64,000 nucleotides of DNA, taken from Microbotryum violaceum (Eukaryota). Under the pieces are notes generated by a model. That model saw only the letters and a list, made by a program, of their open reading frames with translations. It searched no databases and was not told the DNA's origin. The position numbers and the translations under genes are program-made. Each line of letters begins with the position of its first letter. Position 1 is the first letter of the stretch. The stretch is from positions 1,674,001 to 1,738,000 of the forward strand of contig CDLV01000010.1 in the NCBI GenBank assembly GCA_001244265.2. The letters are read 5' to 3'. Positions 15,999 through 61,900 of the stretch are shown here, piece after piece.

Positions 15999-18761
15999 AT
16001 GGTCGACCCCAAGCCCGACTACATCATCGTGTTTGACCCGCAACACGTGCCCAAACCCCGATCCGGCAAGCAATCTTCATCGTCCCCGCACCCCAAGAAG
16101 CAGGACAAGGCCCAAACGCAGGCGGCGCTACAGACCGAATATGAGAGCCTGATCGCCGCACTCGAATCCAGCGGATTCGAGGTCACCGGGAGACCGGGAG
16201 CAAAGGGCACCCAGCAGATCTTGCTCTTTGTCCGGGCAAACGAGGACCGGCTGCAGGCCGAAGTGCATCGTGAGAGGTGAGTCAAACAGAACACGAAGAA
16301 TGCCGAAAGCTTGAGACCGTAGATTGAGTGTGAATGTGCTCTATTCGGTGCTTCGTCCGGAACCACCGATAGATTGTCCGACTGGCTTCATGGAGTTGCT
16401 TCGAAGAGGGCCTCACCCAAAACGGCTCGGGATTTTGTCTCCGAGCCCATTACCCCTGCCGAACGACTACGACTCGTGTACTCGATTCTTAGCTCGCCCG
16501 AAGCAGCCATCACCGGGGTCTCGGTCACGTCTTCCGCCTCGTCGGGTCGTACGGTGGGGCTCGACCCCGTTCCTTCACCCGCCAACTTCCCGCACGTCAT
16601 TTCCGTCTTCCCTCCCCACGACGTCGGTTTCAATCAACGCTGGCTCAAAAGCTGGTCCAGTCGATCCCACGCGCTCAAACCAATCCCACGCGCCGAACTG
16701 GACGAGATCAAGGATCACCTCGGCGAGAAAATCGCACTCTATTTTGCCTTCCTCCGCTACTATTTTGCTTCGTTGCTCTACCCCGCCTTGATGGGCATGA
16801 GCTTCTATTTGCTGGGTCTTGCGTACCACCCAATCTACAGCATCGGCATGGTCGGTTGGTCGATCTACTTCATCGAGACCTGGAGGATTCAGGAAAAAAT
16901 GCTGTCGGTCGAGTGGGGGACTTACAACATCCACACCGTCGAGAGCGAGCGTGCCGAGTTTCACGGGGACACACAGATCGTCGATCCCGTCACAGGCGTG
17001 GAACATGCTTACTTCCCCTTTTTGAAGACGTTCGCAAGACAGTTGATGACCATCCCCGTCTTACTGGCCTTTGCAACTGTCCTCGTTGCGCTCATCTCGA
17101 CGATCTACGTCACCGAGACCCTTTTCGGGGAAGTTTACGAGGGTCCAGCAAAGCGGTACTTGACACTGGTACCGACAGTCATGTTTGCTGGGCTAGTTCC
17201 ACAAGTTATCGCTTTGTGAGTTTGAATGGCGGCGGCGTTGCCGCTTTCGCGCCGAAGCTGACATTAAGAACAATCATGCCAGATGGGGCACGACCGCTCA
17301 GAGGCTGACCAAGTTCGAGAACCACACCCATCAAACCGAACATGACCAATCCTTGACGCTCAAGACGTTTGCGCTCAACTTCTTCGTCGCCTACGGATCA
17401 CTCGTACTCACATCTTATGTCTACATTCCCTTCGGATCCGTTCTGGTCCCGTACATCTTGGGAGTGCTACCGTCCAAACACGCCCAGAGGCTTTCTTCCA
17501 CGTCGGTTATGAGCCCGAATGGGAAGAAGGACTTCAGCATCAATTCGAGCAAGCTGCACACTCAGATTGTCGCGTACACTTTGACGAACCAAGTCGTCGG
17601 TGCCTTCACCGAGATTGGTCTGCCTTTCGTTCTGTCCTTCGCCAAGAAGGAAGTAGCCAAAGTGCAAGAGAAGCGAGCGGGTGCGAATTCGCCTTCGCAT
17701 CTCAAGCGCGGGATGGACGACCTGAGCGAGCACGAATACTTGGAGAGGATCCGGGACGAATCTCAATTGCCCGTATACGACGTTTTGGGGGACTACGCAG
17801 AGATGGTGTTGCAGTTCGGGTACCAGGCGCTGTTTTCCGTCATTTGGCCCATCGCGCCGCTGTTTGCGTACCTCAACAACTTTGTGAGTGATTTTGGTTT
17901 CGGCTCCCTCCTTTGTGTCACACTAAACATTCTTCGTGGATTAACAGATCGAATTGAGGTCGGACGCCTTCAAGATCACTCATCAGCACCGCCGGCCGAT
18001 TCCAACTCGAGTCGCCACCATAGGCCCTTGGCTTGATGTGCTCGTGAGTGCACGGTCACGCTTCAATAGGGTATACCTGTAAACTGACGGAGCTCTTCGA
18101 GCAAACTTGGCAGAGCTTCATCTCGTACCTGGCTGCTTTCACAAACTCGTCCTTGGTCTACCTCTACCGACCCCACTGTGATGTCTCGTCACCCACGAGA
18201 GCGTTCCTCTCGAGCCTTTGGTCGCGAGGAAATGACACTCTGGCCGCGAACGCGACGCATATCCACGCAACGTCCAACATGCATCTTGCAACTCGAGGTG
18301 ACCCGGGAGGCTTTTTCAAAGCCGCCTTGGATGGCGCCAACGCCGTGCAGGCGACCAAAGATGCCCTCTGCGGAGGGCTGAGTTCGACTCCTTCGAACCT
18401 CCCTCTCATCACCTCGACGTTGTTCTCAGCATTGCTCGTAGCGCTCTTCTCGGAGCACATCTATCTCGTTGTACGAACGACAGTGAGGTTCATTCTTCAC
18501 CGGACGAGCTGGATTGGGTCCGAAGCGGCCAATCACGTGCGACGTAGTGGGCTCGAGCTGAGGAGAAACTATCTGGACGAGTTGGGCCTGAAGAAGACCC
18601 CGAAGGAATTGGCCGAGGACAGCGGGAAAATTTCAAAGACAGAAGATATTGCCGAGAACGAGAAGATGACTGAGGGCACGAAAAGAGCCGAGCGAGGGGG
18701 GTTCTGGAAAGGGCAAGACAAGGGTTTGGTCGAGTTGAAGAGGGTCGCTAAAATCGATTGA
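15999..18761 (+). CDS. Anoctamin/TMEM16 family scramblase or channel (Ist2-related), multi-exon
   Basis: DEIKDHLGEKIALYFAFL, LTKFENH, DYAEMVLQFGY, IELRSDAFKI, RVATIGPWL; multiple transmembrane segments. Confidence 0.92.
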
Positions 18762-33185: not shown

Positions 33186-35324
33186 TCAATCATCATCCTC
33201 AGTGTACATTGCTCCGTCGCCTTCATCGTCGTCGTCATCGTCGTCGTCGTCATCGTCCAATACCTCGGCACTAACACCAGCCCCTTTTTCTTTCTGACTA
33301 GCCGCTGCCGCGGCTCCTGCCCCCGACGGTGAGGAGTCGGTGCTGGTCTTCTTCCCCTTCTTGTGTTGATGAGCGGCAGCGACCGGCGAGCCTTTCTCCA
33401 GCTTCGTCCAGCCTCCATTTGCGAAACGCCACTCTTCGGATGGGATGATAGTCCAGAAGCAGCCTTTTTTCCCCGGGATCGTGTTGTCGGGTATTTTCTT
33501 GAACACGGGTTGAAGGGAAAGGTTATGTCGAATCGAGTTTTGCCAGCCGCACTCGTTCTTTTTATAGTACGAATCTGAGACGAAGAAGAATGTGTGGCAA
33601 GGAACCGAGGAATCAGCTCAGGTGGTCCCACGACAGGGACATGCAGGAAAGGAAGCAAAACCTCGGATCTCTTACAGTTGTTCGTGACAAAGTCGTAGAT
33701 CTCGGATAATCGGAGACGCTTGAGGGGGGCAGTCAAGATCGCTTGACCAATCAAGGCCGAGTACGAAAAGTTAGGCCGATTCGGATCGTGGGGGCGTTGG
33801 ATGCGGGTAACCTTCTTCACAGGAGACGCGTCCACGGACTCAGGTACCACGACGGGTTTCGCCGGCGCTGCGGGTTTTTTGGGTCGAGCTGTAGACAAGA
33901 CCGCGACCGGGGATGCGGATGCTGGCACCACTTCGGCGGGGGGCCGAGCCGCAGCGAGCATTGGTTTCGAATCGAGTGTCGCAGTCGCCGAGCCTCTCCG
34001 CGATGACGACGCTGCGGACACTGGCCGCCGTGAGTTCGTGACGGGAGGCACTGCGACCTTTGCTCTTTTCCGATCAGCTTCAGCCACGTCATAATCGGCG
34101 GCATCATTCTCGACCCCAACCGAAGGTGAGTGCGCAGATGGTCGAGACTTCCTGTGCGAAGCTCCGGTCTCGATGGATGTCATTTCGACGGATCTCTGTC
34201 GAGGCGCCGCGTTGGAGAGGTCTTCAAGGGCGAAAGGATCGTATGCGATCGATGTTGCGGTGGATGTCGATCCTATGGGTTTGGACGAGTGTGTTTGGCT
34301 GCGGCAAAAAAGGGAAAAGGTGATCAGTTGGATGGGCAATGCCGAGGGCAAGATCTCGACGGGGGTGTACCGAGCTCTTCCTATCGCCATCTCCTCTTCC
34401 GTAACGGGCTCGATCAAATGTGTCAAAATGTCTTGCAGCGCAGGCGATGTGGTAATCTCGAATTGAAGGCTGCAAAAGAAATTGCCGGTTGGTGAGCATG
34501 CGAAAGTGAAAGCATTGCACTTCACTATCTTGCCATGACCCGCCTTCGCTTGACAGCGGCCCTCTTGAGGTTCGTCAGCCAAAGTAGCAATTCCTCTGTT
34601 TCGTCCGTGGATTGCACAACTTCGAGCCGCTTGAAGCTTGTCAAGATCAAACTGAGCCCATTCCAGCCAGATCCAATCTTGGCCGGGTCAAGTAGGTGGG
34701 GGGGTGACGCAAAGTAGAGGTTGAGGGCATGTCGAAGAGTCGACCATGGAAATGTGACTCGCGAAGGGTGTGTAAGCAGCTGGCCGAAAAGTGACATGAG
34801 CATGCCATTTGTCGGCGCAACTGCAACAAGAGGGAAAAGAACGGACAGGGGAGGAGCAAGGGACGGAGCACGAGTGGAATGTGTTAGGTCCGCGCTACGG
34901 CATTACAATTGAGCCATGTAAAACGATCTCCTAATCTTTGGGAAAGACGGTCGAAGAGGAATGGGTGGGTCGGTCCATCGACTGTCTGCAACAAGGACGT
35001 CTGTGCCTCGAGAGAGGAAGCGACCCAACCTTCTCCGACAAAGCGATCGGTACACCGAAGAAAAGGCAAACCGGACCCGAACATGGAAACTCGGTCCACA
35101 ACTCTGTGTTGGAAGTGATAGCCTCCGAGGCGGTGACGATGGCTGGTTCGAGTCTTCCCTCGGTCGCCTGCCAGGCCGTTCGGGAACGGATCCAATTCGT
35201 ATACAGAGCTAGTACATCCACTAGATCCGCGATGGAGGGACAATGTACACGGCTACTGGCGCTCACCTGGAACACGTGTGCCCTCAAACAGAGAAAGCGT
35301 TGTCAAGTCTGACAGCAGCTCCAT
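33186..35324 (-). CDS. Forkhead (winged-helix) transcription factor, multi-exon
   Basis: RPNFSYSALIGQAIL...LRLSEIYDFV, GWQNSIRHNLSL, GKKGCFW; acidic tail; start at 35324 and N-terminal exons inferred. Confidence 0.82.
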
Positions 35325-40899: not shown

Positions 40900-41495
40900 T
40901 CATTGGAATGGGGGTGATCTGGGGTCGTGCGGTCGCGAGGGGGGGCCGACTTTGGTAACCGAAAAGGGGTTTGGAATCCGCGGTGGAGATCCAGCGCAGA
41001 CGGGTACAAGGGGTATGTGATTGCTGCGGTCGCAGGGGGTTACATTCCCCCTTTGGACCACGTGAATCATTTGGATTGAGCGGGATGTTTGTGCCATCGG
41101 AGGCCTTGTTCGACGCGTCTCAAAGAATTAAGGGGCTTCAAGGAGTATGGCGGTCTCAGGGGGGGGCTGAAGTCAAAAGATCGAAGAAGGTTCAACTGTA
41201 CGACTATAATCGGATTCGCCTGTACAACACATGTACCATCACCAACGACTCATCCATCTTTTCCCGATTCCTTGTGTATAATCTTCAACCTTCCTTTCAT
41301 TCGTCTCTGGGAGGGAGCAACCGTGGGTGGGGGGACTTGAACTCGGATGTATCGGGTTGGTCTGTTCTGCTAGTTACAACGCATCAAGCGGCGGTTGTGG
41401 TCATCATCGTGCATGCTGGGTAGCATCTCCTTTAGTTCCGTAGGGAGTTTTCTCGTCTTGCAAATTAGCGATGAGTTTCATACAAAAAAAAAAAA
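40900..41495 (+). mobile_element. LINE 3'-end fragment with poly(A), unit 1
   Basis: Ends in A12 (41484-41495); 3' UTR blocks resemble 46975-47182; 5' boundary uncertain. Confidence 0.6.
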
Positions 41496-41498
41496 TTT

Positions 41499-41806
41499 AG
41501 AAGGTTCAACTGTACAATTATGATCGGATTCACCTGTACAACACATGTACCACCACCAACATTTCTTCCATCGTTTCCAGATTCCCCGTGTATTATCTTT
41601 AATCTTCCTTTCATTCGTCTCTGGGAGGGAGCAACCGTGGGTGGGGGGACTTGAACTCGGATGTATCGGGTTGGTCTGTTCTGCTAGTTACAACGCATCA
41701 AGCGGCGGTTGTGGTCATCATCGTGCATACTGGGTAGCATCTCCTTTAGTTCCGTAGGGGGTTTCTCGTCTTGCAAATTAGCAATGAGTTTCATACAAAA
41801 AAAAAA
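41499..41806 (+). mobile_element. LINE 3'-end fragment with poly(A), unit 2 (direct repeat of 41185-41495)
   Basis: About 310 bp highly similar direct repeat ending in A10. Confidence 0.7.
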
Positions 41807-43487: not shown

Positions 43488-43518
<31 letters not shown>

Positions 43519-46500
43519 TATTAGGAGCAATATACCACTGCACCAAAAGGAGAGGCACCTCTATAACCTATTCGATCAACTCTACTACGTCAGCGATGTA
43601 GTTATAGCCAAGAGTGATTAATATTACAACATACCTATTCGATCAACTCTACTACGTCAGCGATGTAGTTATAGCCAAGAGTGATGAATAGGAAGCTAAC
43701 AGTATGGGAGCCGCGCGCCTCAAGTCCTCAGCCTGGGACCCTTGGCTTAACCCTTGGCCAGGCTCGTTCCCTGCGCTTAAGTCCCAGGCTCGCTCCGCGC
43801 GCCTAAGACCTGAGCCGGCGCGCCTAAGTCCCAGGCTCGCTCCGCGCGCCTAAGTCCTGCGCCCGCGCGCCTAAGTCCTGAGCCGGTGCGCCTGGCCCGT
43901 TCCGCGCGCCTAAGTCCTCTGCCGATGCGCCCGGCTCGCTCCGCGCGCCTAAGACCTGTGCCGATGCGCCCGGCTTGATCCGCGCGCCTAAGTCCTGAGC
44001 CGAGCGGAGAGTGGATTCTTCACACACCCAAGGCGTGGGCCAAGGTGCTGACCAAGGCCTACAACGCGATGATAGAGCGAGGCTCACTCTCTCCCAAGCA
44101 GGGCCAAGGACTCGTGCGCCTCATCTTCAAGCGACACAAGAAGAATGCTGATCGCGCCGAACTTTCGGCGTACCGGCCGATCACCCTGCGCGAGTGCGAT
44201 TACAAGATCTTTACCAAGGTCTATGTCGCCCGTTTGAACCAAATTCTACCGGATCTCCTCCCGCCGCAGCAGCATGGATTCGTCAAGGACCGCCGATCGG
44301 CTGACGCTGCACTACACCTTCGTCTCCTGATCGAGGAAGTTGGCGCGCGCAGGACCGAGTTCCCCGCGGCCGCACTCTTATCTCTTGACCAATCGTCCGC
44401 CTACGACCTCGTCAAGCATGACTGGATCTTTGCCATCTTTGACGCTCTGGGCGCTCCTGCCACCTTTCTTCGCGTGCTGAGGATGCTCTACTCGGGTGAC
44501 TCGACCTCGGCCCGCTACATCATCAATGGGTTCTTGACGGCGCCGGTACGACTGACGTGTGGGCTCGGCCAAGGGGACCCGGCGTCGTCGTCGGTCTGGG
44601 ACATCGTGTTTCAGCCGTTTCTGGATGCTCTACACCGTCGAAACATCGCGCTGAATCTCTCCATACCTGCACTTCATCCGTACCCACAGAGCCGCGCCAT
44701 TACATCGCTTGCTTTTGCCGATGACGTTGTCGTCGCCGTCGCGGGCTTGGGGTCACTCAACTTGCTCGATGACCTGGCGCTCGACTGGAGGCATGCAACG
44801 AATGGCCGGCTCAACACGGACAAGACGGTCGTCCTACCGATCGGACGCCGCTGGGACCCGGGGCAACGCCCACTCGTCGTCAAGGCCGCAGGCAAGTCGC
44901 TCGAGTGGATCGGCCTCCCCTTTGACCCGAGCGGCGACACCGAACTCGCCTACGCGAATCTCATCGAACGCCTCGAGGCGACGCTGGAAGGGGTTCAGCA
45001 TCGCTGGCTCACACACCACACCCGTGCCTTTTACGTCAATCGGTACGCCATCCCCAAGATCCTGCACTTCCTTGCAGCCGACATCCCGCCGCCCAAAGTC
45101 GTCAAGAAGCTCGATGACATGCTCGTCGATTTCGTCCGTGGGGGCAAGGGCAGGACCAGCTACGGCAGAGATATCGTGTTCACAGCCAAGCTCAAGGGGG
45201 GACTCGGGGTGATCAGGATGCAGGACGTCGTGGACGCGGTTGCGGCACGGATCTGGGACGTTCTTCTCGGCGGTTTGGGCGCGATCTGGCAAGGACTTGC
45301 GCGCGTGGCACTCCAGCGAGCTCAGTCCGACCTCGACCTGGCCACCGATCTCTGGCCACATCCATCCACTCCCATCCCCAGCGACCTCCATCCCCGATGG
45401 CGAGCAGCATTGGGGGTTCCGAAACAGCAAGACGCGCAGGTCAACCCGAGGACCTTGACCACCGCGAACCTGCTCGCGCTTCCCACCTTGCTCGGCAGCC
45501 TCCACACCCCCATCAGAGGGAGACAGACCATCGACGCGGTTCATATACCTGACTACCTTCGTCTCCAGGGCTACCCGAAGGTGGCGGATCTCTACCGGCG
45601 CGAGTTGTATGCGGGTGGGGGGTTTCACCTTTGGACGCCGCCGGCGGATGTGCTCGGCGACAACAGCGAGTACGATCGACGCGGGCTCCCGCAGCGACTG
45701 GCAATCGCGGCCTGGTACCGGTTCACTGTCGATCGACACAAGAACACGCCCTTGGCGGTGGCGGTGGCGGCAGGACGGCTCAACGTGCCTCCCCGGATCG
45801 GCACCAGCGCACCGCTCGAGGCGATTATCCCCAAGCCCGTGGCCCGCTTTGCAATGGAGCAGCGCCTTCCGGACCCGGTGCTTCCACAGCAGGCGAGCCA
45901 GTACAAGCTGCTGAACATGGCTCGACCGTACACCATCCGTCGCATCCGCCGGGTCCTGAACGCGAAGGCCTTTACCAACACGCTCGGGCTCAAGGGACCA
46001 CCGCAGCCGGACGACCTCAGGAGCTTTTGGAAGGCGGTCAACTCGAAGGCACTGACGGCGAGGGAGAGGGAAGTTTGGTTCAAGCTGATTCTCCGCTTCA
46101 CCCCGACGCGCAAGCTGCAACACCAACAGAATCACGACACTTCTCCGCGTGCCTCGTCTGCGAGGCGCCGGTGGACGACGCCGACCACTACTTTTTCGAC
46201 TGCGTTGACTCTGGGAACGTTTGGATCGCGGCAAGGAGCGTGCTCTGCGACGCACTGGGGCTCGACACGATCGACAACACGCATTACACGGCTGTTCAAC
46301 GCATGTTCGGACTTCCGAAGCTCAAGGCCAGTCTACGCGATCAAGAAGGAGCGGGAGGACGATCGAAATATTCACCGGGCTGGTCTTGGAGATGATCAGC
46401 AGCGGGGGGTGGGGATGCAGAAGTGGGGGACGAAGATGGAGGGTGTTGTGAGGAGGAGGATCATCTTGGAGGAGAGGTTGAAGCTGAGGGCGGGAGGAGC

Positions 46501-47182
46501 TTGGGGAGGAGAGGGCAGTAGAGGCTGGGTTCGACTTTCCCCCACCACCACCACACACACACACCAAATTCTCGTGACATCATTTTCTCCTACTGTACAC
46601 TAAATAGATCGCTTTCATCTTTCATTTGTTACAGGTTCACCGTTGCGGATCATGGACCATCTCGCGATTTGGCGTCGACTCGGTGTGGCTCGCGCTCTTC
46701 GGCTTCGGGGTTCTGAGTCAAGGGAGGGATCAGCGGACACAGGCAGAAAGTCGGCTTTGAGGGGCCAGGGACTGCCGATGGGGGAGGTTTTGAGGGACCT
46801 TCACTGCGTCTTGTTGTGGCTGAGCAGAGACTTGGAGCGTCGAGGGTCGTGGTGGTTGCGCAGTCGTGCTCTTGTCTTCGTCTCGACCGAGTGGGAAGTG
46901 GCTGTGGGGTGGGCCTTCTGTCATTAGTACATTTCTTTTCTTTCTTTTTTTCTCTTCATCTCTCTTTCTCTCTCTCATTAGTCTCCTGGGGGGAGCAACC
47001 GCTTGGCTAGGGCATTTGAATCCGAATCTCGGATTGGTGGACTTGGCTCGTTTCTCGCACTTTTGCGGGCGGTTTGTGTTATCATCGTAGTCTTCCATCT
47101 AGTTTTTTTCCGTAGGCCAAAACAGGGGGAACAGGAACTGGGGGCAATATGATGAACGTTTTCTACAAAAAAAAAAAAAAAA
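41807..47182 (+). mobile_element. L1/Tx1-type LINE, 5'-truncated ORF2 (APE endonuclease, RT, zinc finger), 3' UTR and poly(A); frameshifted and interrupted at 43234-44024
   Basis: APE motifs IQEH, NVYAP, GGDLN, SRLDYF, SDH; RT motifs [23 protein letters not shown]...HYFFDC; A16 tail at 47167-47182. Confidence 0.92.
43234..44024 (-). mobile_element. Chimeric LTR insertion: family A copia LTR (43569-44024) fused to a TRIM-like mini-element (43234-43563)
   Basis: 5 bp TSD CACCC at 43229-43233 and 44025-44029; removal restores the LINE frame LYQTAPKAWAK; mini LTR 43234-43328, PPT, PBS 43488-43518, partial LTR 43519-43563. Confidence 0.85.
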
Positions 47183-47977: not shown

Positions 47978-48226
47978 TATATGAACCACACAACTGCTCA
48001 AGCGGTGGCGAGTCTCTGATCGACGGACCAGGGAGACCAGACCAATGAAGTTGCTTAGGATTACACACCTGCTCAAGCGGTGGTGAGTCTCTGATCGACG
48101 GACCAGGGAGACCAGACCAATGAAGTTGCTTGAGCAGGAGAGTGAGAAGCGCGGAACCAGTTGGCTGGGGCAAGTGCGCAACCAGGTCCGTGCCCCAGTG
48201 CCAAGCGCACGGACCCAGCTAAGAAG
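47978..48226 (+). mobile_element. Partial, diverged copy of the TIR element family seen at 60436-60975
   Basis: Two tandem units CTGCTCAAGCGGTGG..GAGTCTCTGATCGA..GGAGACCAGACCAA..GAAGTTGCTT; cut by the LTR at 48227. Confidence 0.7.
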
Positions 48227-51139
<2,913 letters not shown>

Positions 51140-51261
51140 TATTCGATCAACTCTACTACGTCAGCGATGTAGTTATAGCCAAGAGTGATGAATATTACAA
51201 CATACCTATTCGATCAACTCTACTACGTCAGCGATGTAGTTATAGCCAAGAGTGATGAATA
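51140..51261 (-). repeat. Duplicated ~55 bp LTR terminus, family A (also 43569-43690)
   Basis: Two copies of TATTCGATCAACTC...GAGTGATGAATA separated by TTACAACATACC. Confidence 0.9.
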
Positions 51262-51472
51262 GGAAGCTAACAGTATGGGAGCCCCGCGCCTCAAGTCCTC
51301 AGCCTGGGACCCTTGGGCTTAACCCTTGGGCCAGGCTCGTTCCCTGCGCTTAAGTCCCAGGCTCGCTCCGCGCGCCTAAGTCCTGCGCCCGCGCGCCTAA
51401 GTCCTGAGCCGGTGCGCCTGGCTCGTTCCGCGCGCCTAAGTCCTCTGCCGAGCGGAGAGTGGATTCTTCACA

Positions 51473-54400
51473 CCCCCCCCCACGCGAACGCGAGGTAGAC
51501 TTGAGCCGTGGGTGACGCGTCCGTAGACCTAGAGTATAGCAATGTGCACCGAAAATCTTGGGACCTAGCGCCTTGGTGAATATGTCTGCAACCATGTTCG
51601 CTGTGCCGACGTGTGAGAGAGAGATCTCGCCTTGGTTGACCATGTCGCGGACAAAGTGCTCGCGGAGGCGTATGTGTCGAGTGCCCGAAGTGCGAACGGG
51701 GTCGTGAGCGACGGCGGCGGCGGCCTCGTTGTCGGTGAAAATGTGGGCTGCATCGACCGGGCGAACGTGGAGCTCGGAGAGGAGTTGCGTAAGGTAAATC
51801 GCTTCCTTACCAGCATGCGACAAGGCGAGGTATTCGGCATCAGTGGTGGAATCTGCTACCCGAGTCTGACACTTCGATGACCAAGAGACGGCGGAGCCGG
51901 CCAAGTAAAAGACGAAGCCCATTGTGGAGATGGACGTGTCGACGCAGGCACCCCAGTTCGCATCAGAATAGCCAACCACACCCGTAATTTTGGCGGGGCC
52001 ACAGGCGTAGAGTAGCTCATCGCGGTACGTAGCGCGAAGGTAGCGAAGGACGTGTTTGACGGCAATCCAATGGCGGCGGCCGGGGTTGTTGGCGAACCGG
52101 GACAGGTACGAGACGGCGAAGGCAATGTCGGGCCGAGTGCCAAGTGAAATGTATAGGAGGGAGCCGATGGCTTGCAGGTACCACGACCGAATGCGTTCCG
52201 TTCCCTGACCCGGTACAGCCGTGAGCAAGAGGCCGGGCGTCATTGGCACCGTAGCGCCGCGCGTTGTGGTGTCGAAGTGGAAGCGGGCGAGCACGTCCAT
52301 GATGTAGCGCTCCTGGGATAGAGCAATGGAGCCGTCTTCCAGGCGTCGAATTTGGATGCCGAGGATGTATTCTGCGGGGCCGAGCCGTTTGACGCCGTAT
52401 CGTTGTTCGAGGCCGGAGATGACACGCTCGATCTCGTTGAGGGCGGGGCTGACAATGAGGAGATCGTCGACATACAATGCGATATAATGGGGCTGCTTCT
52501 GATCATCAATGCGAGAGTAAATGCAGTGATCAGTGCCCGTTGCCTTGTACCCAAGACTTCGAAGTGATGTGTCGATGTGGCGATTCCAGATGCGACCGGC
52601 CTGCTTAAGACCGTAGATCGAGCGTCGCAGCCGGAGAACCTTGTCGCCCGGGAAGTCGAAGCCTCGTGGCGTCGTCATCCAGATATCGTGATCGAGCTCG
52701 CCGTGAAGGTAAGCCTTGTCGATGTCGGCCTGATGAACGTGGTAGCCATTGGCAGCGGCAAGGGCGAGAAGGCAGCGAATGGAGGAGAAACGGGCGACGG
52801 GTGCGAACGTCTCCGAGAAGTCGATGCCGTCGCGCTGGCGATTTCCCTGTGCAACAAGGCGTGCCTTCCGCCCTGTGATATCACCCTGTGCATCGCGCTT
52901 GGTCTTCCAGACAAATTTGGAGGTGACGATGGTGGCGCCCGGCGGTACTGAGGAGCGAGGCTCGATGGTGAACACCTTGAAATCGTCACGCATGGCGGTG
53001 AACTCGTCTGAGGCAGCTTGAGCCCAGAGGTCGTGCTCGTCGCTGGACATCGCTTCACGCCAGGTCTGGGGATCGCTAGTGATCGATTTGACGGGTTCAA
53101 TGGCTTCGAGGGCGGGTCGTCGTCGTCCGTGGCGATGAAAGCGCGATGATGGCGAGAGAGGAAATCGATCTCATCAGGAGAGTCGTCATCGGGGGGCTGC
53201 CAGGCGGCAGCGGCGGGCGTGGGTGTCACCGAGGTGTCGTCGTCGGATCGATGTACGTCCATCAGGTTGAGGCGAACCGCGGTGTCGGAGTTCAGGAGGT
53301 CAAGCGGATCATCCGAGTCATCGATGGACGGTCCCCGGCCGAGGACGTGGCGGGAGACGAAAACGGGCGCGAACGACTGAGACGACGAGGGGCTGGTATC
53401 TGTAGAATTAAGTAAGGATCCGCCAGTGTACCCTGGGGCCACGTCAACGGCGCTCATGGCAGAATCATCAAGGGGGATGAGACGTCCATGTGCGCCGACC
53501 TTACTAGTGGGGTCCTCGTCTTGACGGCGGGGGCGGGCGTGTCGGCGGGGCGGGCATGTCGGCGGGGGCGTGCGTGTCGGCGGGGGCGTGCGTGTCGGCG
53601 GGAATGATGAACTGGCGTTCGGCGTCGTCCGCATCGACGGGCGTGCTGACTGGTAGGCCGGGGAAGTCGTCGTCGAGGAAGGTGGCATTTCGGCCAAGCA
53701 CAACCTTGTTGGTGGAATGGTCGAAGAAACGGAAAGCCTTGGAGGCGAGGTCGTAACCAGTGAAAATCACGCGCGCGGCCTTGGGGTCGAGCTTGCTGCG
53801 AAGGTCCGGCGCGACTGTGAGCCAGGCCGCGCAGCCGAACGGGTGAAGGGCGGTGGCCGTGGTGCGTTGGCCGTTCCAAACGAATTGTGGGGTCTGTTTG
53901 GCCAAAGCTGAGTGTGAGCACCTGTTTTTGCAATAAACGAAGTATGCAGCCGCTTCGTCCCAAAAGGTGGCCGGCAGGTGAGAGTCGGCAAGGAGGGCGA
54001 GGACGCCCTCGACGATGGAGAGGTTGACACGTTCGGCACGACCGTTTTGCTGAGGCATGTATGGAATGGAGTATTGGCGACGAATGCCCCTGGACTGGCA
54101 GAACTCCGTGAACGCGTTGGATCGGTATTCGCCGCCGTTGTCGGTGCAAAGGATCCGTAAACGCGCGTTCGTTTCTAACTCCACTTCGGCGAGCCAAGTC
54201 TGGAAGGTCGGGAAGACGTCGCTTTTGTGATCGATTGCGTATGCCCAGAGTTTGCGAGAGTGGTCGTCAAGGAAGGTGACGAGATAGCGTTTCCCGGTCA
54301 AGGACGGAGTGGGGAACGACAGGACATCGCTGTGCACGAGGCCAAGTCTCTCGGGGGAATGTGACTCCGAGTCGGGAAAAGGAAGACGATGGCCTTTGGA

Positions 54401-56041
54401 ACCAAGGCAAGCATTGCAAACAAACTCTTCTACGTCTTTGTCACTGTACCCGGCCCCAAACCCGTCCAGCAAACCCGCAGCGATCATCTTCTGTATAGAG
54501 GATGGAGCAAGATGGCCGAGGCAGCGGTGGAGGGTAAGTAGGGGCACGGTAGACTCAGAGCGTGAGAGAAAGGCAAGCTGCTGACATTTGGTGTGATCCG
54601 CGTCCAGGAGGTAGAGACCGTCGTTAACCCGTGTACCGTGAGCGATGGCCTGGCCGTCCTTGGTGATGTCGATGCTGTCGCTGGTGAAAGCGAGTCGGAC
54701 GCGGTCGGTGTCACAAAGGCGAGAGACGGAGAGAAGGTTGACGTGAAGGCCCGGCGCGTGCAGAACGCCGCGCAACGTGATCGGGTGTCCGGTGTTGGCA
54801 ACAAACGCTACATCCCCCATACCAATGGCCGTGATACCGCCGGCAATGCCGCCAATCTTGGTGTGTGCCGTTTGACGATAAGTCGTGAACAGGGAGCGGT
54901 CGGCGACCATGTGAGTCGTCGCGCCCGAGTCGACGACGAAGGCGTCGGTCGGGAGTTGGCGGCGGGCAAACAGGCAGGAGGCGAAATAGCCGACGTTCGG
55001 TCGGTGAGCCGTGGAAGAAGACAAGTCGTCCTGGGTGTCGTCGCTGGTACGTGTCTGTTGACCCCGGTTCTTGCAGTCGAGGGCCCAGTGACCTCGCTTT
55101 TGGCAGCGGCGGCAAGGGCCGGTGGGCGGATGCTTTGCACGTGAAGTGCAGTCTCGCAGGCGGTGGCGGGGGCGCGGCAGGCGGGGCAAGAGGGGGCGTC
55201 GGCAAGCATGGCCGAATGCGAGGTCGAGAGGCCGGCGGATCGGAGCTGAACGCGGATACGGTCCGTTAAAGTCGTGAGCTCCGGGAGTTCGCGCTGGGCG
55301 CGCTGCTCGTCCGTGAACGTGAGACGGAAGCTGTCTAGACAGGACGGTACCATGGCGAGAATGTGCGTGGCGAGGACGTCGTTCAGTGATGTCTTGGCGT
55401 CGCGAATCTCTTGAGCAATGGCCATGTATTCTCGCAGCCAGGTGTCATAGGCCTCGACCGAGGCGGGCATCTTCCGAAAGTCCCAAAGGCGGGCGAATAA
55501 TTCGAGAGTGCGAGTGGCGTCGTTTGGTGCGAAACGAGCCTTGAGTGCGTTGAAGATGCGTGGCGCCGACAGGTCGTCGCTTGGGATGGCATCGAGGGTT
55601 GCTGAGACGTCGGCGGAGTCGATCGAGCCGACGATAATTTCCCGCGCGGCGTCGTCGCGAGCGGCCAGCTGGTCTGCCGTCCACGTCGGGGAACGACGCC
55701 ATCAAGGACGTAACCACGAATCTGATTTGGAAGCGTGAGCCGGAGTTGGCGCAACCAGTTTGTGAATGACTTGGAGCCATCTAGGCGAGCGTGCTTGGGA
55801 AAGACGACTTTTGATGCGGTGGTGGTAGTGGCAGTGGGCTGCGAGGCAGCGGCGGTAGAGGCGGTGGCGGCAGGGGGTGCGAGGGCGGTGGCGGCAGGGG
55901 CTGCGAGGCGGCGACGGCAGGGTGCTGCGAGGCCTGCAGGGCGGCGATCTGGGCCTGCAGGGTAGCGAGTTGATCGCTGATCGAAGACGCAAGAGGGCTG
56001 GGGTCCCTGGGGGACGAAGGCGTGGTGGGGTCGCTGTCCAT
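51473..56041 (-). pseudogene. Copia gag-pol polyprotein, broken by single-base indels
   Basis: ORF pieces 56041-55781, 55470-54808, 55189-53504 and 53050-51350 in Gag-PR-IN-RT-RH order. Confidence 0.85.
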
Positions 56042-56111
56042 TGTGCGATGGTGCGATGGACGTGGGCGGCTCGAGTGGCTGGGCTCGAGGAAAAATGCGA
56101 GCGAGCGGCGG

Positions 56112-56137
56112 GCTGGTAGCTCGTTGGGCTTATAACC
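56112..56137 (-). promoter_or_regulatory. Primer binding site complementary to the 5' half (anticodon arm) of tRNA-iMet
   Basis: GGTTATAAGCCCAACGAGCTACCAGC directly after the 5' LTR; one mismatch to the copy at 43493-43518; same type as Drosophila copia and yeast Ty5. Confidence 0.85.
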
Positions 56138-56212
56138 TATTCGATCAACTCTACTACGTCAGCGATGTAGTTATAGCCAAGAGTGATGAATATTACAACA
56201 TACAGTATGGGA

Positions 56213-56580
56213 GCGCGCGCGCCTAAGTCCTCAGCCTGGGACCCTTGGGCTTAACCCTTGGCCAGGCTCGTTCCCTGCGCTTAAGTCCAGGCTCGCTCCG
56301 CGCGCCTAAGACCTGAGCCGGCGCGCCTAAGTCCCAGGCTCGCTCCGCGCGCCTAAGTCCTGCGCCGCGCGCCTAAGTCCTGAGCCGGTGCGCCTGGCCC
56401 GTTCCGCGCGCCTAAGTCCTCTGCCGATGCGCCCAGCTCGCTCCGCGCGCCTAAGACCTGAGCCGGTGCGCCTGGCTCGTTCGCGCGCGCCTAAGTCCTC
56501 TGCCGATGCGCCCGGCTCGCTCAGCGCGCCTAAGACCTGTGCCGATGCGCCCGGCTTGATCCCGCGCCTAAGTCCTGAGC
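56213..56580. repeat. GC-rich GCGCGCCTAAG(T/A)CC minisatellite in family A LTR U3
   Basis: About 11 units here, fewer in the other family A LTRs. Confidence 0.8.
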
Positions 56581-56604
56581 CGAGCGGAGAGTGGATTCTT
56601 CACA

Positions 56605-58785
<2,181 letters not shown>

Positions 58786-58940
58786 AGGACAAGGCGTGGA
58801 GATGGCCGAGTCAGAGCTACCTTGGTCAGAAGCGCTTGATGCAGGTGATTCCGGGTCAGGGAGCTCACGAGCAGAGGAGCCTTGGTCAGGGGCAGGGGGT
58901 GCGAGCGAGTCCTGGTCAGGGACCTCGCAGGCAGGGGCGG
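58786..58940 (-). mobile_element. Probable fragment of another retroelement (Pro/Ser/Asp-rich linker) trapped between two LTRs
   Basis: Minus frame reads PPLPARSPDQDSLAPPAPDQGSS, similar in composition to the IN-RT linkers here. Confidence 0.4.
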
Positions 58941-61900
58941 TATTCGATCAACTCTACTACGTCAGCGATGTAGTTATAGCCAAGAGTGATGAATAGGAAG
59001 CTAACAACAAGAGAGCCGCGCGCTCACGTCCTCAGGCTGCGAACCTTGGGGCTGAGCCAATGGCCCAGGCTCGCCCTGCGCGCCTAAGTCCTGGGGCTGT
59101 GTGCGCCTGGCTCGCTCCGCGCGCCTAAGTCCTGAGTCAATGCGCCTTGCTTGTTCCGCGCGCCCTAAGTCCTGGGGGTGCGCCAGGCAAGCGCGCGCCT
59201 AAGTCCTGGGCCGGTGCGCCAGGCTTGCTCTGCGCGCCTAAGTCCTGAGCCGAGCGGAGAGTGGATTCCTCACACCCCCCCCACGCGAACGCGAGGTAGA
59301 CTTGAGCCGTGGGTGTCGCGTCCGGAGGCCCAGAGCATAGCAATGCGTACCAAAAATCTTGGGACCTAGCGCTTTGGTGAATAGGTCCGCAACCATGTTC
59401 GCTGTGCCAACGTGGGAGAGGGATATATCGCCCTGGTTGACCATGTCGCGGACGAAGTGCTCGCGGAGACGGATGTGCGAGTGCCGGAGGTGCGAACGGG
59501 GTCGTGAGCGACGGCGGCCGCGGCCTCGTTGTCGGTGAAGATGTGGGCTGCATCGATCGGGCGAACATGGAGCTCGGAGAGGAGTTGTGTGAGGTAAATG
59601 GCCTCCTTACCAGCGTGCGACAAGGCGAGGTATTCGGCATCAGTGGTGGAATCTGCTATTCGAGTCTGACGCTTCGATGACCAAGAGACAGCGGAGCCGG
59701 CCAAGTAAAAGACGAAGCCCATTGTGGAGATTGACGTGTCAACGCAGGCACCCCAGTTTGCATCGGAATAGCCAACCACCCCCGTAATCTTGGTTGGACC
59801 GCAGGCGTAGAGTAGCTCATCACGGTACGTAGCGCGAAGGTAGCAAAGGACGTGTTTGACGGCGACCCAATGGCGGCGGCCGGGGTTGTTGGCGAACCGG
59901 GACAGGTACGAGACGGCGAAGGCAATGTCGGGGCAAGTGCCGAGTGAAATGTATAGGAGGGAGCCGATGGCTTGCAGGTACCACGACCGAATGCGTTCCG
60001 TTCCCTGACCCGGTACTGCCGTGAGCGAGAGGCCGGGCGTCATTGGCACCGTAGCGCCGCGCGTTGTGGTGTCGAAGTGAAAGCGGGCAAGCACGTCCAT
60101 GATGTAGCGCTCCTGAGATAAAGCAATGGAGCCGTCTTCCAGGCGTCGAATCTGGATGCCGAGGATGTATTCTGCAGGCCGAGTTGTTTGACGCCGTATC
60201 GCTGTTCGAGGCCGGAGATGACACGCTCAATCTCGTCGAGGGCGGGGCTGATAATGAGGAGATCGTCGACATATAATGCGATATAATGGGGCTGCTTCTG
60301 ATCATCAACGCGAGAGTAAATGCAGTGATCAGTGCCCGTTGCCGTGTACCCAAGACTCCTGAGCAATGTGTCAATGTGGCGATTCCAGATGCGACCGGCC
60401 TGCTTAAGACCGTAGATCGAGCGACGCAGCCGGAGTGTGATGTTGTCACGCCTGCTCAAGCGGTGGTAAGTCTCTGATCGAAGGACCAAGGGAGACCAGA
60501 CCAAGAAGTTGCTTGTTACACACCGCTCAAGCGGTGGTAAGTCTCTGATCGAAGGACCAAGGGAGACCAGACCAAGAAGTTGCTTGAGCAGGAGAGAAAC
60601 CAGAGTGGGGCCATTTGGCTGGGCCCAAGTCAGCCCAGCCAAAGTCAGGCGCACGGACCTGGCCCAGGTGCAGAGACCAGGCCCAGAGTGGGAGAGCTAA
60701 GGTGGTGAAAAGTAGGCCAAAAGTGATCAAAACGAAGAGAGGAGGATTTTGAGGTAGGTACAAGATACAAGAAGGACATGAAGGAGATATTTGATCTCAC
60801 ACTTACCACCGCTTGAGCAGGTGAGCACTACTCTTACTATCATCTTTCACCCCTCTAGATGTGGTAACTTACTGTAGTGCTTGAGCAGTGTGTAACAAGC
60901 AACTTCTTGGTCTGGTCTCCCTTGGTCCTTCGATCAGAGACTTACCACCGCTTGAGCAGGCGTGACAACATCACAAAGCGGATCATCCGAGTCCTCGATG
61001 GACGGTACCCCCCCTGAGGACGGGGCGGGAGACGAAATCGGGGCGAGCGACGGAGACGACGAGGGCTGGTATCTGTAGAATTAAGTAAGGATCCGCCAGT
61101 GTACCCTGGGGCCACGTCAACGGCGCTCATGGCAGAATCATCAAGAGGGGATGAGACGTCCATGTGCGCCGACCTTACTAGTGGGGTCCTCGTCTTGACG
61201 GCGGGAGCGGGTGTGGCGGCGGTGGCGTGCGTGTTGGCGTGAATGACAAACTGGCGTTCGGCGTCGTCCGCATCGACGGGCGTGTTGACTGGTAGGCCAG
61301 GGAAGTCGTCGTCGAGGAAGGTGGCATTTCGGCCAAGCACAACCCTGTTGGTGGAATGGTCGAAGAACCGGAAAGCCTTGGAAGCGAGGTCGTAACCAGT
61401 AAAAATCACGCGCGCGGCCTTGGGGTCGAGCTTGCTGCGAAGGTCCGGCGCGACCGTGAGCCAGGCCGCGCAGCCGAACGGGTGAAGGGCGGTGGTCGTG
61501 GTGCGTTGGCCGTTCCAAACGAATTGTGGAGTCTGTTTGGCCAAAGCTGAGTGTGAGCACCTGTTTTTGCAATAAACGAAGTATGCAGCGCTTCATCCCA
61601 AAAAGTGGCCGGCAGGTGGGAGTCAGCAAGGAGGGCGAGGACGCCCTCGACGATGGAGAGGTTGACACGTTCGGCACGGCCGTTTTGCTGAGGCGTATAT
61701 GGAATAGAGTATTGGCAACGAATGCCCCTGGACTGGCAGAACTCCGTGAACGCGTTGGATCGGTATTCGCCGCCGTTGTCGGTGCGGAGGATTTGTAGAC
61801 GCGCGTCCGTTTCTAACTCCACTTCGGCGAGCCAAGTCTGGAAGGTCGGGAAGACGTCGCTTTTGTGATCGATTGCGTATGCCCAAAGTTTGCGAGAGTG

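Follow-up and report, generated by a model that had tools for sequence, protein, structure and literature searches.

Retroelements are expected to lose introns and, in reverse transcription, direct repeats too, yet in the window analysed here (the whole stretch of 64,000 nucleotides of Microbotryum violaceum DNA) a repeat that carries splice signals is stable and homogenised in three copia families. The locus raises the question of whether an element copied through RNA can keep an intron at the end of its LTR, as the first-pass annotation had suggested when it read the duplicated LTR end as an intron that regenerates itself in each replication cycle.

Results

A Pfam search in the copia cluster of the window returned RVT_2 with an E-value of 9.8e-59, and the zinc knuckle (zf-CCHC), Pol_BBD, gag_pre-integrs, rve and SH3-like domains were all found in the ORF upstream of RVT_2. 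With the integrase upstream of the reverse transcriptase, which is the copia gene order, the elements are Ty1/copia, and the right third of the window consists of nested, degenerate elements of this kind. Copia-like elements are described as the commonest LTR elements of Microbotryum lychnidis-dioicae in the available text of PMC4469406. Self-comparison and motif searches gave seven copia LTRs within the window, six of them by a head motif and one (C) by homology. The sense strand of the copia elements is the minus strand, and that of element C alone the plus strand; the LTRs start with TGTGAAG beside a G-run, or with TGACAAG in C, and all seven end in ATA.

Five of the seven LTRs (A1, A2, B1, B2 and C) end as a repeat, a conserved spacer and the same repeat again, which bears out the earlier observation that the last ~55 bp are duplicated in three LTR families. 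The block of 53–56 nt occurs twice per doubled LTR, the two occurrences being offset by 67 nt in family A and by 69 nt in B and C, and the doubled tail (copy 1, a spacer of 11–14 nt and copy 2) forms the final 122–124 nt of the LTR. The spacer is common to all families, with 13 of 15 positions invariant, and the 16-nt motif made of the junction plus spacer, TAG followed by GTATGYTGWAATA, has 5 matches in the window against 0.02 expected, a count that 0 of 100 shuffles reached. In A2, on the minus strand, repeat copy 1 (51207–51262, 56 nt) is preceded by the conserved block TTAGCTTCC and is identical to copy 2; the unique spacer (51196–51206) reads, in the sense direction, G followed by GTATGTTGTA and holds the candidate 5' splice site GTATGT; copy 2 (51140–51195) contains CTGAC and ends in ATA; and the candidate 67-nt GT-AG intron (51139–51205) takes its final G from the flank. 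We also considered whether the spacer and copy 2 mimic the LTR 5' start, in the manner of a 2-LTR junction, and rejected this, the local alignment being non-significant (p = 0.41 for A and p = 0.08 for B).

The A-type LTRs all lie on the minus strand. A1 (44024 to 43569) carries the doubled block and a candidate intron at 43634 to 43568, the last G of which is the first base of GGTTAT, while A2 (51472 to 51140) is the 3' LTR of element X, starts with TGTGAAG directly after a G8 polypurine tract and ends in ATA. A3 (56604 to 56138), the 5' LTR of element X, has a single block copy with the spacer before it, and A4 (59274 to 58941), the 3' LTR of element Z, has a single copy after an upstream block of the copy-1 type. 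The B-type LTRs, also on the minus strand, are B1 (48608 to 48227), which is the 3' LTR of element Y and has a doubled block with the candidate intron interval at 48294 to 48226, and B2 (56997 to 56621), likewise doubled, with the candidate intron at 56688 to 56620, a flank base G and no PBS after it. LTR C (58405 to 58785, plus strand) is the 3' LTR of the plus-strand element and is also doubled, with its candidate intron interval at 58718–58786. The flank base is C in B1 and A in C, which leaves both without the terminal AG.

Element X has direct LTRs (A3 and A2), a PBS (GGTTATAAGCCCAAC...) at 56137 to 56112 on the minus strand directly after A3, and the G8 polypurine tract at 51480–51473 on the minus strand, adjoining the start of A2. 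The match of one contig of run X17 to the window stops exactly at position 56112. There is no target-site duplication around element X, its flanks differ, and its LTRs A2 and A3 differ in structure; it is probably a recombinant. It sits inside the integrase region of another copia element, Y, with A2 abutting this older element, and since contigs of two sequencing runs carry on as Y-type sequence past 51137 and 51140, the end of LTR A2 is fixed there. A search for the continuation of Y past the insertion of X gave 0 matches, the rest of Y being absent from the window. The stretch 48227–58785 as a whole is a nested, rearranged cluster, with element C inverted and head-to-head with LTR B2 at 56997/57000.

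The U3 of the A-type LTRs holds tandem units of ~39 nt with the core CGCGCGCCTAAGTCC (43750–44020, 51282–51450, 56254–56600 and 59016–59250), and because their number varies, the length of A-type LTRs ranges from 333 to 467 nt; still other lengths of this region occur in the DNA contigs of run X1. Directly upstream of LTR A1, at 44045–46603 on the plus strand, there is an 852-aa ORF with an RVT_1 domain, which belongs to a retroelement class other than copia. Just outside the copia cluster, positions 41185–41806 hold a tandem duplication of ~309 bp with 93.5% identity.

According to the first-pass annotation, the doubled block is followed by the PBS GGTTAT. This is correct for A1 and not for A2, B1, B2 and C, and among all seven LTRs only A1 and A3 are followed by it. 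At 51139–51272 the statement has to be withdrawn, because A2 is a 3' LTR there, the next sequence is GACATT of element Y, and it is the flank that completes the terminal AG. ATA is followed by G in four of the seven LTRs (A1, A3, A2 and B2), by C in two (B1 and A4) and by A in one (C). In A1, 44 additional nt with ATA at their end separate the GGTTAT from the full PBS GGTTATGAGCCCAAC at 43518 to 43504 (minus strand). The interval 43504–43568 (minus strand) can be described as a third unit bounded by ATA and GGTTAT, with a GT start and an AG end, and by eye the 44 nt look like the tail of a B-type repeat; the unit is possibly an inter-family recombinant at the PBS start. The sequence downstream of the PBS near A1 has weak tblastx matches to the gag/integrase region of X (best E 2.7e-4) and is not clearly copia. 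[quoted passage not shown] At 17505, within ordinary coding-like sequence, there is a further PBS-like match, which was rejected as due to chance.

Of 265 positions compared between copy 1 and copy 2 (5 LTRs of 53 nt each), a single one differs. Between families the block changes: the single substitution between B1 and B2 is present in both copies (1/1), and the same is true of 7/7 substitutions between B1 and C and 8/8 between B2 and C, with no substitution between these three LTRs confined to one copy. The A and B blocks share 36 of 58 aligned columns, and within each family the copies match. The U3 identity is 0.94 for B1 against B2 and 0.83 for B1 against C, so that the block diverges at about the same rate as the U3. 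Since the copies stay identical while the families diverge, one copy must be re-templated regularly from the other during replication, and in this sense the alignments show the copies to be re-templated from each other. Because the spacer is common to all families, the duplication is ancestral and not recurrent. To the best of our judgement this concerted evolution of the copies is a new observation.

The homogenised tract has sharp limits, starting after TC at A(T/C)CAC and ending with the LTR, and its start adjoins the conserved block that precedes copy 1 together with a short pyrimidine run. Homogenised copies in diverging families fit the idea of regeneration in each cycle, and their near-perfect identity suggests that conversion is frequent rather than occasional. 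It is already known that direct repeats are unstable in reverse transcription, a 110-bp repeat being deleted at 41% per cycle, and that LTR repeats of 50–75 bp vary in copy number (both as described in the available part of PMC3187697). Given this instability, the persistence of the doubled form in three families needs regeneration or selection.

The annotation had given the length of the candidate interval as 67–69 nt, and from GT to the base after ATA we count 67, 67, 69, 69 and 69 nt. It had also held that donor, branch motif, acceptor and length are kept between family A and families B and C; this stands for the donor (GTATGT in A, GTATGC in B and C), for the CTGAC branch motif 21–22 nt before the end and for the length, each in five of five doubled LTRs, and only in part for the acceptor, as the terminal AG needs the next base, which is G in three of the five (A1 through the PBS, A2 and B2 through the flank) and C or A in B1 and C. 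Read as sequence, the junctions are those of a tandem duplication across AGGT, with ATAG before GTATG at the first and ATA plus G at the second, and excision leaves one copy plus the PBS, so the proposed rebuilding of the LTR end holds at the level of sequence. The candidate spliced junction and the junction of copy 2 with the PBS share the same 53 nt, and the sequencing data considered here (24 runs, all as k=31 Logan contigs with guessed RNA labels) are too short to tell the one from the other. Over 48100–57100, the contigs of the four runs compared (X15, X17, X19 and X1) break at the repeat, no contig of X15 or X17 reaches across the spacer at 51193, and the joints listed include none at an LTR end, which speaks neither for splicing nor against it.

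For comparison with the host, a Microbotryum forkhead protein was aligned to the window, and three short introns were deduced from the alignment in a forkhead-domain gene at 33189–34797 (minus strand). This gene is 97–100% identical to the Microbotryum lychnidis-dioicae protein in two of three aligned segments, the 91% of the third being due to the alignment reading through an intron, and the match assigns the window to this genus of anther-smut fungi. The three host introns are ~56, 72 and 100 nt long, with donors GTGAAG, GTACAC and GTAAGA, branch motifs CTCAC and CTGAT, and CAG at all three ends. The LTR candidate (GTATGT or GTATGC, CTGAC, TAG, 67–69 nt) falls within their length range and is at least as canonical as these three. 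Across window positions 1–40000 on both strands (80 kb of host sequence), a branch motif and YAG in the same geometry accompany 15 of 245 GTRNGY sites (6%) and 0 of 19 GTATGY sites, and a chance origin of the full signal set at the exact repeat boundary in two lineages is unlikely from these counts.

Both caveats attached to the original proposal are justified. Other AGs do follow CTGAC closely: in family A three of them, at +5, +8 and +10 relative to the branch A, precede the proposed acceptor (+22). In addition, GGTATG differs from the PBS start GGTTATG only by lacking one T, and AG followed by G at both junctions is what any duplication that took in the LTR end and the first PBS bases would give. 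The 3' LTR copies keep the same donor and branch, and in two of five contexts that lack a PBS the terminal AG too; on these signals the 3' copy could also be spliced. The conservation of the spacer beyond the donor hints at another role, for example a poly(A) signal or a U1 site.

The first 8–13 nt of the block are complementary to a stretch near the block end (ATCAC/GTGAT, CTGT/ACAG, CTCT/AGAG). Pairing is predicted within the doubled tails at 51140–51262, 48227–48351 and 58661–58785, the folds having modest z-scores of -1.47, -1.36 and -2.73. In these models each copy is able to fold back on itself, or else the two copies pair with each other across the spacer, and structure rather than splicing may account for part of the conservation.

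Two of the seven LTRs, A3 and A4, are single-copy. A4 equals the doubled form minus exactly the spacer and one copy, that is, minus the 67-nt candidate intron, which would fit a spliced template and equally any deletion between repeats. In A3, compared with A1 and A2, 66 nt with GT..AG ends are missing, and the spacer and copy 2 are retained; the missing stretch opens with GTTAGC, which lies 13 nt before copy 1, closes with the final ATAG of that copy, and is out of register with the repeat (56138–56225, minus strand). This looks like use of the branch and acceptor of the repeat with a cryptic upstream donor, the alternative reading of the same bases being a deletion at a 2-nt GT microhomology. 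Should A3 have arisen by splicing, transcription would sometimes have to begin at least 13 nt upstream of the repeat; a start of this kind would favour annealing to copy 1 and would count against the cycle of splicing and re-annealing discussed below. Both single-copy LTRs equal excisions with GT..AG ends, which would count for an intron. Three-copy LTRs were not seen among the seven LTRs of the window (0/7), a small sample.

A second GT..AG interval, of 95 nt (sense GTCAGC...ACAG, 54585 to 54491, minus strand), lies in element X where the integrase region begins. In the comparison of runs X15, X17, X19 and X1 over 48100–57100, X17 and X19, which are RNA by guess and come from two studies, each have one contig that passes over this interval, with no such joint for X15 or the DNA run X1. 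It is kept in element Z, where 178 of 182 aligned columns over the interval and its flanks agree. When the flanks are joined, a TAA arises precisely where they meet, between the protease-like domain and the integrase. In plant copia elements, a stop coupled to splicing gives a short Gag RNA (available text of PMC5580714), and the 95-nt interval is likely to yield a Gag-protease subgenomic RNA of this shGAG kind, judging from our comparison. This suggests that the X family engages the spliceosome even with a weak donor.

Discussion

The predictions of the first-pass annotation that lend themselves to a check at the level of sequence were borne out in the window, and its reading is coherent and in part supported. 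A self-regenerating intron at the LTR end is, in our tentative opinion, the simplest one-cycle explanation of these sequences. The final 122–124 nt are most likely the transcribed leader (R-U5), and the most likely origin of the architecture is a tandem duplication across an AG/GT site. To hypothesize, transcription would start at about the first base of copy 1, just after the conserved pyrimidine-rich block, and the spacer plus copy 2 would form a host-type intron of 67–69 nt whose acceptor G is the first base of a half-tRNA-type PBS. Splicing would join copy 1 to the PBS, and as the result has the same sequence as copy 2 followed by the PBS, priming would be unaffected. Minus-strand strong-stop DNA made on the spliced leader would be complementary to a single copy, and if it annealed to copy 2 at the RNA 3' end, which would carry no PBS and usually no AG, it would be extended over the spacer, copy 1 and U3. 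The doubled LTR would in this way be rebuilt, with the new copy 1 and the new copy 2 both derived from the old copy 1, while annealing to copy 1 instead would give a single-copy LTR of the A4 kind. Such a cycle would account for the near-perfect identity of the copies and for the sharp start of the homogenised tract, which would be the RNA 5' end.

Conversion of two copies into two copies within one cycle needs a one-copy strong-stop DNA and its annealing to copy 2, and on the sequences at hand such a cycle needs transcription to start at or inside the repeat and the 3' end to lie in or after copy 2. That a leader intron is kept in spite of RNA replication, strong-stop DNA annealing one repeat downstream and rebuilding both LTRs, is possible, and we put it forward with more doubt than conviction from a sample of seven LTRs in two independent lineages.

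The main rival of the self-regenerating intron is copy-choice without splicing, in which reverse transcriptase jumps between the copies during strong-stop synthesis, or the first strand transfer takes place out of register. One-, two- and three-copy LTRs would then arise and the copies would be homogenised over several cycles; the spacer would be retained for a signal it carries (a poly(A) signal or a U1-binding site for 3'-end formation), and the splice-like signals would be by-products, GGTATG being a remnant of the PBS start and AG followed by G the LTR end plus PBS. Copy-choice is a documented property of reverse transcriptase which can homogenise copies in the absence of splicing, and the deletion of direct repeats by template switching is described as frequent and precise, with LTR repeats of 50–75 bp varying (available part of PMC3187697). 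The single-copy LTRs A3 and A4 are of the expected kind, the spacer GGTATG can be compared with the PBS start GGTTATG, and its conservation (13/15) extends beyond the donor alone; U1 binding near poly(A) sites is also described as controlling termination in plant copia elements (PMC5580714, available text). However, copy-choice leaves the host-type set of donor, branch and acceptor in both lineages unaccounted for, the three-copy LTRs that it predicts are missing from the small sample (0/7), and to convert two copies into two within one cycle it needs the same geometry of start site and 3' end as the intron. We regard it as only slightly less likely than the self-regenerating intron.

An intermediate reading, which we consider unlikely, is that the interval is a leader intron without self-regeneration, which only some transcripts lose by splicing, to the benefit of export, stability or translation. 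Unspliced RNA would be the sole productive template, spliced RNA would lead to dead-end single-copy LTRs, and occasional copy-choice would homogenise the copies. It draws on the same splice signals as the self-regenerating intron, and A4 is the exact intron-less form; furthermore, intron removal strongly cuts mRNA accumulation for most of the genes tested in Cryptococcus neoformans (PMC3744415, as far as its available text goes), and copia elsewhere keeps unspliced genomic RNA beside a spliced subgenomic RNA (PMC5580714, in part). The difficulty is that spliced RNA keeps the PBS and everything downstream, and nothing visible bars its reverse transcription, while the copy identity (1/265) speaks for frequent and not occasional conversion. 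The last alternative, a static relic of one old aberrant strand transfer that duplicated U5 and the PBS start, with no ongoing process or function, could draw on the likeness of GGTATG to the PBS start and on the further unit of A1 bounded by ATA and GGTTAT, but it is highly improbable and was rejected, since the 7–8 substitutions between B and C and all differences between A and B occur in both copies, the spacer is shared, and the concerted evolution of the copies contradicts it. A small remainder of probability goes to explanations of other kinds.

Taken as a whole, the feature is a variant of things already known, namely an LTR leader, direct-repeat dynamics and an intron born by duplication. 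The birth of introns by tandem duplication across an AGGT site was described by Hellsten et al. 2011 (PMC3265369, in the part available). As in that system, the direct copies end in AG and then GT, taking out the interval that opens at the first GT and closes at the second AG gives back the sequence as it was before duplication, and the splice signals arise in one step. Unlike the introns in the available text of that article, the LTR duplication lies upstream of a PBS, has a unique spacer of 11–14 nt and is homogenised in three families, and its splicing is a candidate only. The shGAG RNA of EVD/BARE and Drosophila copia (Oberlin et al. 2017, PMC5580714, seen in extract) is similar in that the spliceosome is used and unspliced RNA is the genome, and there the U1 site also controls nearby 3'-end formation. 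In contrast to the LTR feature, the introns described in that extract are in the coding region around the protease, are not duplicated and lie outside the LTR, and their likely counterpart in the window is the 95-nt interval at 54491–54585 rather than the LTR feature.

Similarity also exists with retroviral direct-repeat deletion and R-mediated minus-strand transfer (PMC3187697; for Ty3, PMC5371799; available parts of both), where nascent DNA re-anneals to a repeat, the copy number of LTR repeats changes and strong-stop DNA transfers through R. The retroviral outcome described there is the loss or variation of repeats, whereas here the two-copy state is stable across families and the tract is sharply bounded. 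In split-intron retroviral vectors (Ismail et al. 2000, via the accessible text of PMC3182074) a splice site is copied from the 3' LTR to the 5' LTR, and the intron exists only after replication; in that account the vectors are engineered, donor and acceptor stand in different places, and neither a natural element nor a duplicated R-U5 is involved. The position of the PBS GGTTAT directly after the LTR end is shared with the half-tRNA-primed copia and Ty5 (PMC5371799, in part).

In a literature search, with most subscription journals and supplements outside its scope, we found no description of an intron or of a homogenised duplication at an LTR end. A metagenome scan with the 16-nt spacer motif gave at least 120 loci, and among the matches listed 0 of 120 had a flanking direct repeat, for which reason they were rejected as chance matches. 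Protein-seeded scans for related copia loci gave 9 pattern matches in viral contigs and 89 in genome contigs, none of which was confirmed.

Conclusions

Even without splicing, the sharp boundaries of the homogenised tract show how far strong-stop DNA extends, and they are a sequence-only readout of strand transfer in a fungal copia element. If the self-regenerating intron is true, it would give elements copied through RNA their first known natural means of retaining an intron, and would be a natural counterpart of the engineered split-intron vectors. The element would then have the benefits of splicing with no loss of the intron, both copies being rewritten from copy 1 in every cycle, and this could explain how such elements cope in fungi whose expression is intron-dependent.
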